DNA of 64,000 nt, from the sequence record SRR2962707_3124. One strand, written 5' to 3'. Position numbers and translations under genes: made by a program. The number at the start of each line of letters is the position of its first letter. The first letter of the stretch is position 1. Under the pieces are notes generated by a model. It was given only the letters and a program-made list of their open reading frames with translations, was not told the DNA's origin and did not search any database. Positions 26,591 through 40,439 of this stretch are shown here, piece by piece.

Positions 26591-27337
26591 GTGCAGCCAA
26601 TTGTTGCCATTGTGGCCGATAAAAGAGAATTTGATAATTATCAGTGGCATGCCGTGCCACATCAGTATTTAGCTGCGACTTTTCATGTGGCCGGTGTCTT
26701 ACCGCTGATGGTGCCAGCTTTCGGTGCAGAGATCGATTTTGATAGTTTGCTTGATCGTGTTGACGGTGTTGTCATGTCTGGATCGAAGACCAATGTTCAT
26801 CCCAGCAACTTTGGTGTTGAGGCGCATGAAAAATTTGAACCTTATGATTTGGACCGCGATGCAACATCGCTGCCATTGATACGGGCTGCGATTGAAAAAG
26901 GTGTTCCGCTTTTTGCTATTTGCCGCGGTATTCAAGAACTGAATGTTGCGCTTGGCGGATCACTTGCGACTGAAATTCAGGAGAAGGACGGTGTTAACGA
27001 TCACCGTGCACCGGTTTCAACTGACAGTAATGAGCGGTTTGCGCTTGCGCATGAAATCAATGTAAAGCCAAATGGTTGCATTGATAAAATCATTGGCGGC
27101 CAAGCGCGTGTAAACTCGCTTCATCGTCAAGCCATCGATAATTTGGCACCGCGTTTGCAAGCAGAGGCCACGGCCGAAGATGGCACAATCGAAGCGGTCT
27201 CGGTTATTGACTCAAAAGGTTATGCTGTTGGCGTTCAATGGCATCCAGAATATTGGGCGAGCACTGACGATACGTCGCGTAAACTATTTGAAGCTTTTGG
27301 TGATGCTGTTCGTAGCTACGCTTCTTCGAAGGCTTAA
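26591..27337 (+). CDS. puuD: Gamma-glutamyl-gamma-aminobutyrate hydrolase family (peptidase C26)
   Basis: AICRGIQELNVALGG, VNSLHRQ and GVQWHPE. Confidence 0.8.
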   Translation: MQPIVAIVADKREFDNYQWHAVPHQYLAATFHVAGVLPLMVPAFGAEIDFDSLLDRVDGVVMSGSKTNVHPSNFGVEAHEKFEPYDLDRDATSLPLIRAAIEKGVPLFAICRGIQELNVALGGSLATEIQEKDGVNDHRAPVSTDSNERFALAHEINVKPNGCIDKIIGGQARVNSLHRQAIDNLAPRLQAEATAEDGTIEAVSVIDSKGYAVGVQWHPEYWASTDDTSRKLFEAFGDAVRSYASSKA

Positions 27338-27777
27338 AGCGCGTCTAGAGAAACATTGAGATTTTTAGGCTCAATGACTTCCCAAGCAACGCCGTCGCCG
27401 CGCGCAAGCGTCATCAGATTATTGCCTTGGCGATCACTAATGGTGACGGTTTCTTTTGCGCCTTCTTTCCACGCGCGCGCGGAGGAAATTTCTGTTAGCG
27501 CCGCGTTGCAACCAGCTTCCGGCTCTATGCGATGTACGTCGTAGCCTTCAGCGCGATGCAAATGAACCACGCATGTTTGGTTGGTCACATGGTTTATCAG
27601 GGTAAAGTCATTGGCATTTGGATTGGTGCGCGGCACTGAAGCGATGCTGGCGGTGCTCATCATATCAACGCCTTCTGCATCGCCTCGGAAATTTGCTTGA
27701 GATGCGCCCAGTGTAATCATGCCCGCTACGCCAGCTATCGCCGCGCAATTTAAAATCGATGTTCCTGAAAAACCCAT
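27334..27777 (-). CDS. Exported protein, probable AprI/Inh protease-inhibitor-like beta-barrel
   Basis: N-terminal hydrophobic segment; C-x20-C...W...G..l..l..gDG pattern resembling the Inh family. Confidence 0.55.
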   Translation of the reverse strand: MGFSGTSILNCAAIAGVAGMITLGASQANFRGDAEGVDMMSTASIASVPRTNPNANDFTLINHVTNQTCVVHLHRAEGYDVHRIEPEAGCNAALTEISSARAWKEGAKETVTISDRQGNNLMTLARGDGVAWEVIEPKNLNVSLDAL

Positions 27778-27820
27778 GCCAATCCCCAAATTTGTCCGAA
27801 GATATTATGGGCATTGTGTG

Positions 27821-27836
27821 GTTAATAGCTGATTAA
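27821..27836 (-). promoter_or_regulatory. CtrA box
   Basis: Minus strand TTAA-TCAGCTA-TTAAC (perfect consensus), followed 11 nt later by CATAAT, upstream of the Inh-like gene. Confidence 0.75.
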
Positions 27837-33138: not shown

Positions 33139-33376
33139 CGGCATATCCTCAAAAGCAAGTCCGGCTTTGCCGGATCAGAACATAAAGATGCACGAACAAT
33201 AAAGACGCAATGCGACAATACTGAGCGAGCAGCGAGATTTGGTCCATTGTGGAGTGGACCGGTTCTGCCTTGGATTGGGGAATACTCCGCCGCACTTCGG
33301 GCAATGAAAGTGGTGTCTCGAAAAACCCCGGCGTTTGGACCGCCAGACGAGTAATTGTTGGGCTTCTAACCCTGAG

Positions 33377-33521
33377 ACCCTCACCGTCGTTGCTTTACGA
33401 TACCCACGCTTTACCAGTTGGCTGGAAAACGTCCGGAGGGGTTAGCTCCGGTTACCTTACCTAAACCCTCACCATATCGAGGGGTCGGCGGATACCTATA
33501 GGCACGTGCGACTATGGGTGA
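33377..33521 (-). ncRNA. speF leader / alpha-r45 (Smr45C-like) structured RNA
   Basis: Minus strand GTCGCACGTGCC...TCCGCCGACCCCTCGATATGGTGAGGG...GGTAAGGTAACCGGAGCTAACCCCTCCGG...AAAGCAACGACGG, recognised as the rhizobial speF element; lies between odc and a divergent LysR gene. Confidence 0.85.
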
Positions 33522-38939: not shown

Positions 38940-38978
38940 GATTGATATGTCTTGTGGCCTCAGCGTGGTGATTTACCG

Positions 38979-39590
38979 ATGAAAAAAGATGAAATTTCTA
39001 AGAAGATGGAGCCTTATCACCATGGTGACCTGCGTCGATCTTTGCTGAAAGCCGCTGAGGCGGAGCTGATTGAAAACGGGTTAGCTAAGTTTTCGTTGCG
39101 CAGCTGCGCAAAACGGGCAGGGGTGAGCCATGCTGCGCCCGCGCATCATTTCAATGATACTGATGGATTGCTGACTGCGCTGGCTTATGGTGGTCATGAG
39201 CGATTAGCGAGCGCGATGCGCGATAATCAAGAAAATGCCGTTGATGCGCGATCTCTATTGGTTTCGGCATGTCTGGGCTATCTGCAGTTTGCGATTGATA
39301 ACCCGCAATTATTCCAATTGATGTACGAAGTTAAAAGCGCATCTTTAAACATAGACGGACATAAAGGGGAGGATCCGGCGTTTTCTGTATTGGTCAACGC
39401 TGTATCAAAATTGCGCGGGGCTGAAATTTTTAAATCCGAGGAAGGGTGGCGTTTGGCTGCTTCCATATGGTCATTGGTCCATGGCTATGCTGATTTGGCA
39501 ATTGCAGGACGCATGCGCTTTGTAACGGGGCAACCAAGCGACGTTCAAAAGGATTATTTGGAAGAAATTCTCGGCCGTATCATCGCATAA
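38979..39590 (+). CDS. TetR/AcrR regulator (WHG-type C-terminus)
   Basis: YHHGDLR, SLRSCAKRAGVSHAAPAHHF and WSLVHG. Confidence 0.92.
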   Translation: MKKDEISKKMEPYHHGDLRRSLLKAAEAELIENGLAKFSLRSCAKRAGVSHAAPAHHFNDTDGLLTALAYGGHERLASAMRDNQENAVDARSLLVSACLGYLQFAIDNPQLFQLMYEVKSASLNIDGHKGEDPAFSVLVNAVSKLRGAEIFKSEEGWRLAASIWSLVHGYADLAIAGRMRFVTGQPSDVQKDYLEEILGRIIA

Positions 39591-39656
39591 AAAGGGCGAC
39601 CTTTTTAAAAGATCGCCCAATTTTCGGACGGCTTTGGGAGGAAATAAGTCCGATCA
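39589..39656 (-). ncRNA. Candidate small RNA with CCUCCC anti-SD loop and intrinsic terminator
   Basis: Minus-strand hairpin UCGGAC-UUAUUUCCUCCCAAAGCC-GUCCGA, then GGGCGAUC-UUUUAAAAA-GGUCGCCC-UUUUU; -10 TATCAT and CtrA boxes upstream. Confidence 0.6.
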
Positions 39657-39681
39657 ATAATGATATGGTCTCACCGAAATC

Positions 39682-39713
39682 TTAAACAAAGGTTAATGGT
39701 AAATTTGTGTTAA
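39682..39713 (-). promoter_or_regulatory. Tandem CtrA boxes
   Basis: TTAA-ACAAAGG-TTAA (39682-39696) and GTAA-ATTTGTG-TTAA (39699-39713; minus strand TTAA-N7-TTAC). Confidence 0.7.
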
Positions 39714-39737: not shown

Positions 39738-40439
39738 TTAAGCTGGCGCCATTGCATTTTTAATCGTTGCTTCAACGTGGTCGACCAACTCATCAGGTAA
39801 CGAAAGACGCCCCGCCAGTAGGTCCAAATAGCCGCGTTCTGCGCGGGTCTCAGGATTGATGGTTAGACGTGACGCGGTGTAAAGCTCAATTTTTTGTGCG
39901 TCGGTTTGTGCCGAGGATACCAGCATATCAATATCAACAGGCTTGGCGAGTTCTGTTCTAATGAAGTTTTGTGCGTCTTCGCTGTATCCGCCCAAAGCCA
40001 ATTTTTCTGTAATGCGCAAGCGCTCTTCATCATCAACGTGACCATCAGCGCGTGCGGCCGCGATCATCGCTTTTACTAAGGTCAGCGTGAATTCATCTGC
40101 GCCCTGTGGCGCAACGCTGTGATCAAAGGGGCTTTCGGCTGGTGGTGGCAGGATTTCTTGGTTTGCCTCTACCTCTGCCGGATTATTTCCGTTCTGGTAG
40201 TTTTGGTATGCTTTATAAGCAAGTCCTGCAACAGCGGCTAATCCACCTAGCTGTAACGCTGAACCAGTGACCGCGCGTCCTGCGCCGGTTCCCAGAAGAA
40301 CAGCAGCGATAGCGCCTGTTGCCAACGGATTGTCTTTTGCTAATTGCCCGACTTGTGAGGCTTTATCGCGAACCGTACCTTCTGTTCCAGGCACGTTAGC
40401 TTCAAGCAATTCTTTAATCAATTTTCGCGGATCAAGCAT
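39738..40439 (-). CDS. DUF533 / TerB-like membrane protein (YebE family)
   Basis: GGLAAVAGLAYKAYQNY, AMIAAARADGHVD..ER and ERGYLD.LA..L.LP. Confidence 0.88.
   Translation of the reverse strand: MLDPRKLIKELLEANVPGTEGTVRDKASQVGQLAKDNPLATGAIAAVLLGTGAGRAVTGSALQLGGLAAVAGLAYKAYQNYQNGNNPAEVEANQEILPPPAESPFDHSVAPQGADEFTLTLVKAMIAAARADGHVDDEERLRITEKLALGGYSEDAQNFIRTELAKPVDIDMLVSSAQTDAQKIELYTASRLTINPETRAERGYLDLLAGRLSLPDELVDHVEATIKNAMAPA

Follow-up and report, generated by a model that had tools for sequence, protein, structure and literature searches.

Between two convergent genes in the stretch of DNA that we analyzed (64,000 nt; hereafter, the window), the minus strand carries what we think is the gene for a small regulatory RNA. 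Our preferred reading, to which we assign a probability of roughly 60%, is that this RNA of about 65 nt has a gene of its own, that it belongs to a single-copy family in Mesorhizobium-like Rhizobiales, and that it is activated by CtrA and represses its targets via an anti-Shine-Dalgarno loop. The comparison of relatives shows a conserved anatomy: a TTAA-N7-TTAAC box, a -10-like element, a C-rich anti-Shine-Dalgarno hairpin, and an intrinsic terminator. From this anatomy, we infer that CtrA activates the small RNA (sRNA) and that the sRNA represses targets by pairing with their ribosome-binding sites.

In alphaproteobacteria, CtrA acts as the master regulator of the cell cycle, and it also has a link to bacteroid differentiation in rhizobia. 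This family is one candidate route by which CtrA could act post-transcriptionally in legume symbionts. Its RNA is short, conserved, and present in a single copy, and it combines a near-perfect CtrA box with an anti-Shine-Dalgarno seed. The genera concerned are Mesorhizobium, Nitratireductor, Aminobacter, Chelativorans and their relatives. The family, which is missing from Rfam, would also add a one-hairpin form to the anti-Shine-Dalgarno sRNAs that are known from these bacteria.

Anatomy and conservation of the unit

The gap between the two convergent genes is 147 nt long, with a DUF533 gene on one side and a TetR-family gene on the other. Reading along the minus strand from 39713 to 39589, there is a distal box, a proximal box, a -10-like hexamer, a hairpin with a CCUCCC loop, and an intrinsic terminator (together, the unit). 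An earlier note on this DNA had described the boxes, the hexamer TATCAT, the hairpin, the CCUCCC loop, the terminator, and the convergent flanks, and we found every one of them at the positions it gave, on the minus strand. The features, and what each rests on, are:

39699..39713, minus strand: distal box-like site TTAA-CACAAAT-TTAC (TTAA-N7-TTAC); from the sequence, and specific to the window
39682..39696, minus strand: proximal CtrA-type box TTAA-CCTTTGT-TTAA, whose next base (39681) is G; from the sequence and its conservation
39657..39667, minus strand: -10-like region CATATCATTAT, with TATCAT at 39665-39660; from the sequence
39589..39655, minus strand: predicted sRNA transcript, about 63-67 nt; from the match to covariance model R1 (described below) and the fold
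39624..39653, minus strand: hairpin 1, with a 6-bp stem of TCGGAC (39653-48) and GTCCGA (39629-24) and an 18-nt loop; from the sequence and the fold
39636..39644, minus strand: putative anti-Shine-Dalgarno seed UUUCCUCCC in the loop of hairpin 1; from invariant columns of alignments A1 and A2
39589..39618, minus strand: intrinsic terminator, with its stem at 39618-39594 and T5 at 39593-89; from the terminator scan and covariation
39738..40439, minus strand: DUF533 gene, the upstream neighbor and syntenic anchor, outside the RNA; Pfam PF04391, E = 1.7e-51
38952..39590, plus strand: converging TetR-family gene; Pfam TetR_N and TetR_C_33

The terminator has 11 base pairs, and the terminator scan called it on the minus strand only. 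One of these is a U-G pair, which becomes a C-A mismatch when the plus strand is read, so the earlier proposal that the terminator works on just this strand was upheld. The stop codon of the TetR gene lies inside the terminator's T-run. When a 68-nt RNA from the unit was folded, the predicted energy was -25 kcal/mol (z = -4.5), and just 1 of 200 shuffled sequences was equally stable. A simple sigma-70 scan found no minus-strand promoter. (The organism of the window is low in GC, at 49%.)

The proximal box in the window matches TTAA-N7-TTAAC at 8 of 9 bases, with G instead of the final C, and its 5' T is 40 nt ahead of the start of the model match. By their frequency within the window alone, such boxes are not above chance: the 64 kb contain 2 full TTAA-N7-TTAA sites (1.34 expected) and 16 sites that are within one mismatch of TTAA-N7-TTAAC (12.8 expected), including the distal box. 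The proximal box is significant because it is conserved in relatives, not because of how often such sites occur in the window. The best -10 hexamer of the window copy is 16 nt after the box, versus 11 nt in the family, which would place the start of the box near -42. Because of this longer spacing, the transcription start (roughly 39655-39651) and the geometry of activation are uncertain for the window copy. The equivalent start that would be predicted in Mesorhizobium is the A of AGUCGG.

We used the DUF533 protein to recover 80 loci from the genomes of Mesorhizobium, Nitratireductor, Phyllobacterium and others (up to 70% identity). The unit is present at most 330 nt past the DUF533 stop codon in 54 of the 80. 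A similar search of metagenomes with the DUF533 protein gave 65 loci, and 27 of these have the unit on the same strand. The layout in the relatives is GTTAAC-N5-GTTAAC (which is the same as TTAA-N7-TTAAC), then GCGCAT(C/G)ATTCT, a hairpin with the loop UUUCCUCCUCCCAAG, and a terminator of the form GGGCGGUCGCC...GGCCGCCC-U5. The seed in the relatives' loop, CCUCCUCCCAAG, is longer than in the window copy, which has only UUUCCUCCC.

From 39 distinct copies in relatives, and leaving out the window, we made a covariance model (R1). When we searched both strands of the 64 kb with R1, with filters off, the top match was the unit itself, at full length (39656..39586 on the minus strand, 28 bits, E = 7e-6). 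The second-best matches, at 15.6 bits and below, were terminators alone. R1 has matches in 68 of 151 genomes sampled from the taxonomic family of a Mesorhizobium genome, mostly with one match per genome, and in 5 of 151 genomes sampled from the order. Two weak matches at the level of the order were inspected, and both lack the box. R1 had no match in the one Phyllobacterium genome that was searched and only weak matches in one Ahrensia metagenome-assembled genome. In a pattern scan of named genomes, the matches listed include Mesorhizobium, Nitratireductor, Aminobacter, Aquibium, Aquamicrobium, Chelativorans, and Pseudaminobacter; also among the matches listed are scattered chance matches in unrelated phyla.

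The window copy is the weakest and most diverged member of the family that we examined (28 bits, 44% GC). The exact pattern of its hairpin is absent from the genome and metagenome contigs that were searched. Searches with the window's DUF533 protein reached at most 70% identity, except for one 87-residue fragment at 74%, and these two kinds of search did not find a closer relative of the window copy.

Covariation in relatives had been suggested as a check on the earlier proposal, and both helices of the RNA do covary. In a 56-row alignment, 97.7% of paired cells can pair, as compared to 88.2% in shuffles. Changes on both sides were seen in 12 of 15 pairs, including 4 of the 5 pairs in the main helix of hairpin 1 and 6 of the 8 pairs in the terminator helix, and none of 500 shuffles reached the observed values. 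If the 3' partners are slid by 1-3 columns, pairing drops to 26-62%. The hairpin is kept despite quite different stem sequences (for example, in the loci L039, L022, and L010). Because the alignment had been fitted to R1 and contains many closely related rows, we view the covariation as support rather than proof.

Both the fold of the window copy and the consensus structure of the relatives place the motif in the loop of the hairpin, while the loop of the terminator is without it. The RNA has one motif hairpin in the window and in the relatives alike. Loss of the loop or of the boxes in relatives had been named as evidence against the earlier proposal; the loop seed is invariant and the proximal box is kept. 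Judging from these comparisons, the unit is a conserved single-copy family and not a chance pattern.

Promoter box, genomic context and rival explanations

To describe the box, we anchored 51 copies (50 loci and the window) on the proximal half-site. We left out four loci that have no box and are unlike the family (L091, L092, L093, and L140), as well as L081, whose genome is already represented by L033, and a match to the terminator in L124 that is antisense. Among the 51 copies, the box matches TTAA-N7-TTAAC at all 9 bases in 34, at 8 bases in 15, and at 7 bases in 2; that is, 49 of the 51 match at 8 or more bases at a fixed distance. Among 27 metagenome copies, 22 match at all 9 bases and 5 match at 8. 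Across the 51 copies, the 5' T of the box is 36-41 nt ahead of the model start. Information content peaks at both half-sites, and the 7-nt spacer is variable. Such conservation of the half-sites, but not of the spacer, is what one sees when a protein-binding site is under selection. The -10-like element of the family, CA(T/A)NNT, is 11 nt past the box and is found in the metagenome copies as well.

The earlier note had proposed two tandem CtrA boxes. The proximal one stands as a CtrA-type box, given its conservation. The distal TTAA-N7-TTAC site is not a feature of the family (additional TTAAC half-sites are found upstream in only a few relatives), and it was wrong to give the two boxes equal standing. 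As a side observation, GANTC methylation sites occur in the promoters of 12 of 51 copies, versus 2 of 51 for a control stretch, but this difference is too weak to interpret and is confounded by relatedness.

At the level of sequence only, the motif of the box is the same as the CtrA consensus of Caulobacter and of Sinorhizobium meliloti, which are given as TTAA-N7-TTAA (accessible text of PMC4287350) and TAA-N7-TTAAC (accessible text of PMC3616915), respectively. The accessible part of the Caulobacter study also describes activated promoters with the 5' base of the full motif near -35 (or at -39 for ctrA P2), and six non-coding RNAs that have a CtrA motif (PMC4287350). By analogy, and counted from the model start, the position of the box in our family fits the activating CtrA sites of Caulobacter. 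CtrA is encoded in all five of the relatives' genomes that were tested (about 424 bits, with a cut-off of 350).

An independent sRNA gene need not be controlled by CtrA: the direct repeat could serve another regulator, or act as a -35-like element, in which case expression would be uncoupled from the cell cycle. Frequently, the conserved word is the longer CGTTAAC, which extends beyond the published CtrA consensus, the spacing between the box and the -10 hexamer is atypical in the window, and 11-bp direct repeats are typical of OmpR-family regulators generally. Still, we consider this explanation unlikely, as exact TTAA-N7-TTAAC is found in so many of the copies (34/51 and 22/27), the box is located as activating CtrA sites are in Caulobacter, and, by eye, there is no resemblance between the promoter and the sigma-54, EcfG, or RpoH consensus sequences. 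It is also quite unlikely, in our view, that the unit has no promoter at all, which would mean that the hairpin and the terminator are the 3' untranslated region (UTR) of the DUF533 mRNA, perhaps processed, and that something else accounts for the conservation of the box. What speaks for a 3' UTR is that DUF533 adjoins the unit in most Mesorhizobium loci and that the sigma-70 scan did not find a promoter. Also, the terminator scan of the window found no minus-strand terminator between the DUF533 stop codon and the unit, so any read-through from DUF533 must also end at the unit's terminator. The context across the 50 family loci argues otherwise. DUF533 is directly upstream of the sRNA in just 17 of them. 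In another 9, a TetR gene intervenes between DUF533 and the sRNA, which makes the sRNA divergent from TetR. One locus has TetR only, and in 23, neither gene is present in the available flank. One genome has about 17 kb between the unit and the DUF533 gene. The distance from the box to the RNA is constant in all of these contexts. Since the unit also occurs away from DUF533, and the box moves with the RNA, it has the look of a separate gene, with a promoter of its own, rather than of a mere 3' UTR, and the earlier description of a self-contained minus-strand unit (with a box, an anti-Shine-Dalgarno hairpin, and a terminator) held up.

If the gene is independent, it could nevertheless be a diverged or truncated member of a known RNA family, either mmgR (alpha-r8) or cuckoo (alpha-r14), instead of having a family of its own. 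We consider this very unlikely. Infernal searches against Rfam, which the earlier note had suggested as a check on novelty, fit its claim that the element is new: at the gathering score, no family matches the unit in the window (the window's only matches are ar45 and the speF leader), and there were no matches in 20 of the relatives' loci, at least 9 of which carry the unit (L005, L006, L009-L012, L014, L016, and L025). There are weak matches below the threshold. One of the two best for the window copy is to suhB (RF00519, which is MmgR or alpha-r8), with 15.6 bits and E = 1 at 39656..39580 on the minus strand, far under the gathering score of 41, and the alignment requires that the model's 5' hairpin be deleted. 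Separate matches to RF00519, at 62-66 bits, are found in all five of the relatives' genomes that were tested; in two of these (G001 and G129), the genuine mmgR shares a contig with the R1 element, and the distance between them is about 40 kb. We therefore rejected the unit as an mmgR orthologue. MmgR does have a similar size (77 nt), the motif UUUCCUCCC, and a strong terminator, but in the Rfam model, a small 5' hairpin is followed by a single-stranded linker that holds its motif, while the motif of the unit is in a loop. As for cuckoo, the Mesorhizobium copy in L033 matches ar14 (RF02344) at 18.6 bits, far under the gathering score of 58.8, and the window copy has no listed match to ar14 even at E up to 10. 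R1 also matches a three-motif, cuckoo-like RNA (in L140) at 38 bits. The cuckoo RNAs, including NfeR1, resemble our family in being alphaproteobacterial, in their anti-Shine-Dalgarno seed, and in having a hairpin loop with CCUCCUCCC. This full loop motif is present in most of the relatives, while the window copy has CCUCCC, or UUUCCUCCC only. However, the accessible text of PMC4615179 (Reinkensmeier and Giegerich 2015) defines the cuckoo family by 2 to 4 adjacent motif hairpins; there are several copies per genome. In contrast, our family has one motif hairpin, a terminator without the motif, mostly a single match per genome, and a CtrA-type box. Given the sub-threshold scores, the separate mmgR, and the single motif hairpin, the unit appears to belong to neither the mmgR nor the cuckoo family, though like them it would act via an anti-Shine-Dalgarno loop.

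Proposed mechanism and candidate targets

If the unit is a CtrA-activated sRNA gene, as we prefer, then phosphorylated CtrA (CtrA~P) would bind the box (it overlaps the -35 position) and would switch on transcription late in the cell cycle. The CCUCCC loop of the RNA would pair with target mRNAs at their ribosome-binding sites and lower their translation, and Hfq would probably assist this pairing. The result would be a post-transcriptional arm for the CtrA regulon, like that provided by CcnA in Caulobacter.

We also looked for the targets of the RNA. The earlier note had put forward motA and betI, which are in the window, as complementary to the loop; we saw nothing for either gene beyond generic complementarity to a Shine-Dalgarno sequence. 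A duplex scan of the start regions in the window did not single out any gene, and the top matches were at alternative internal starts. In the genomes of five relatives, the 12-nt complement has a few exact sites (for example, in the start region of a gene for an ABC ATPase), and no target common to these genomes was seen among the exact 12-nt complements. The ctrA leaders of the five relatives have AAGGGGAA before the start codon, which by eye could form about 6 pairs with the loop, 2 of them G-U. Whole-length duplex folding against the ctrA leaders was uninformative. More broadly, the target searches were uninformative. An anti-Shine-Dalgarno seed fits most ribosome-binding sites, and too many genes.

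Comparison with known RNAs

Besides mmgR and cuckoo, we compared the family to other sRNAs from these bacteria. AbcR1 and AbcR2 (alpha-r15) are trans-acting alphaproteobacterial sRNAs with C-rich anti-Shine-Dalgarno loops. They are longer and have two seed regions, and we know of no link between AbcR RNAs and CtrA. The window copy has no match to AbcR in Rfam even at E up to 10. It has no Rfam match to EcpR1 or GspR either. These stress-induced cell-cycle sRNAs of S. meliloti have dnaA, gcrA, and ctrA as the genes they act on; in its accessible text, a 2020 review names only these two as rhizobial cell-cycle sRNAs (PMC7143759). Like the unit, EcpR1 and GspR are rhizobial sRNAs, and they are tied to the cell-cycle circuit; that text does not present them as CtrA-driven, and they have no sequence features in common with the unit.

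A table of sRNAs from Mesorhizobium huakuii, in the part of PMC5596092 that is accessible, lists MH_s24, which is suhB, and MH_s36, a 73-nt RNA of unknown function that is 1.38 Mb from MH_s24. We considered whether MH_s36 might be the unit and rejected this on position: in two Mesorhizobium genomes, the unit is about 40 kb from mmgR instead of 1.38 Mb. Given this mismatch in the distance to MH_s24, and judging by position alone, the unit appears not to be in the accessible table. By synteny, the DUF533 locus of M. huakuii 7653R would be expected between MH_s23, the speF leader, and MH_s24. Using both words and sequence strings as queries, we found no description of a CtrA-linked anti-Shine-Dalgarno sRNA in Rhizobiales in the literature outside of subscription journals. 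Based on its sequence conservation, the unit's family seems to be a real sRNA family that is apparently undescribed, within the searchable literature and Rfam.

The closest functional analogue is probably CcnA (CCNA_R0094) of Caulobacter crescentus. As described in the accessible text of PMC8959179, CcnA is a 182-nt RNA that is encoded at the replication origin and driven by a CtrA box. The ribosome-binding sites of ctrA and gcrA have G-rich sequence (GGGG) at or near them, to which its CCCC loop pairs; CcnA activates ctrA and represses gcrA, and its authors report there that they detected no clear homologue in S. meliloti (PMC8959179). The unit differs from CcnA, as likened by description, in being about 65-70 nt long, in lying beside DUF533 and TetR, and in having a Shine-Dalgarno-type seed. 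A bolder idea is that this family fills the place of CcnA in the Mesorhizobium branch of the Rhizobiales, where such an RNA has been missing: CtrA would turn it on late in the cell cycle, its C-rich loop would feed back on the mRNAs of cell-cycle or motility genes (such as ctrA, gcrA, or flagellar and chemotaxis genes), and it would be at the core of the CtrA circuit instead of at its periphery. We think that this stronger version is improbable. What the unit does have in common with CcnA is a promoter that carries a CtrA box, as far as can be told from the bases themselves (8/9 in the window, and 9/9 in 34/51 and 22/27 copies), and the regulatory logic of CcnA matches the logic that we propose for the unit.

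Gene order and neighbouring RNA elements

The window has the small RNA between the DUF533 and TetR genes. This differs from nine loci in relatives (L097, L101, L105, L106, L109, L115, L123, L128 and L138), where TetR separates DUF533 from the small RNA and is divergent from the latter. This is a local rearrangement, and DUF533, TetR and the small RNA remain neighbours throughout. Roughly 6 kb from this CtrA-box RNA, the window carries two further RNA elements, which adjoin each other:

33192-33348 (-), speF leader (47.8 bits)
33373-33519 (-), small RNA ar45 (118 bits)

CtrA-type boxes and GANTC sites

When we scanned the 64 kb for perfect matches to the CtrA-type box, TTAA-N7-TTAAC, there was a single occurrence, within the 57-nt gap upstream of an ORF on the same strand:

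27821-27836 (-), TTAA-N7-TTAAC site
27334..27789 (-), ORF of 151 aa that encodes an Inh protease-inhibitor domain (PF02974, E = 5e-8)

The site may be a CtrA-dependent promoter.

We also examined the promoter stretch from -30 to +2 in the 51 family copies. In 12 of these 51 copies a GANTC (CcrM) site occurs between the box and the start of the RNA; a control stretch gave 2 of 51. The excess is weak and confounded by relatedness. The window copy has no GANTC there.

Loop complement and ctrA leaders

One Mesorhizobium-like genome has an ABC-transporter ATPase gene with 12 nt exactly complementary to the conserved loop (L272:1501-1512, +), placed 7 nt ahead of its start codon. Across the five genomes compared, no equivalent of this site was seen in the other four. 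The ctrA leaders of five relatives (L300-L304) have two elements in common: the word TTAACCAT, some 95 nt ahead of the start codon, and the ribosome-binding site AAGGGGAA.

Similar RNAs and the cuckoo family

The order-level sample includes a genome of the same order that has a similar hairpin with CUUCCUCCC in its loop, followed by a terminator (L091:1501-1570, +); there is no TTAA box upstream of it. R1, our covariance model of the family, also matched L140:601-679 (-) at 38 bits. This RNA is cuckoo-like: it carries three CCUCCUCCC motifs and lacks the CtrA box. The match shows that the one-hairpin family and the modules of cuckoo RNAs are kin in sequence.
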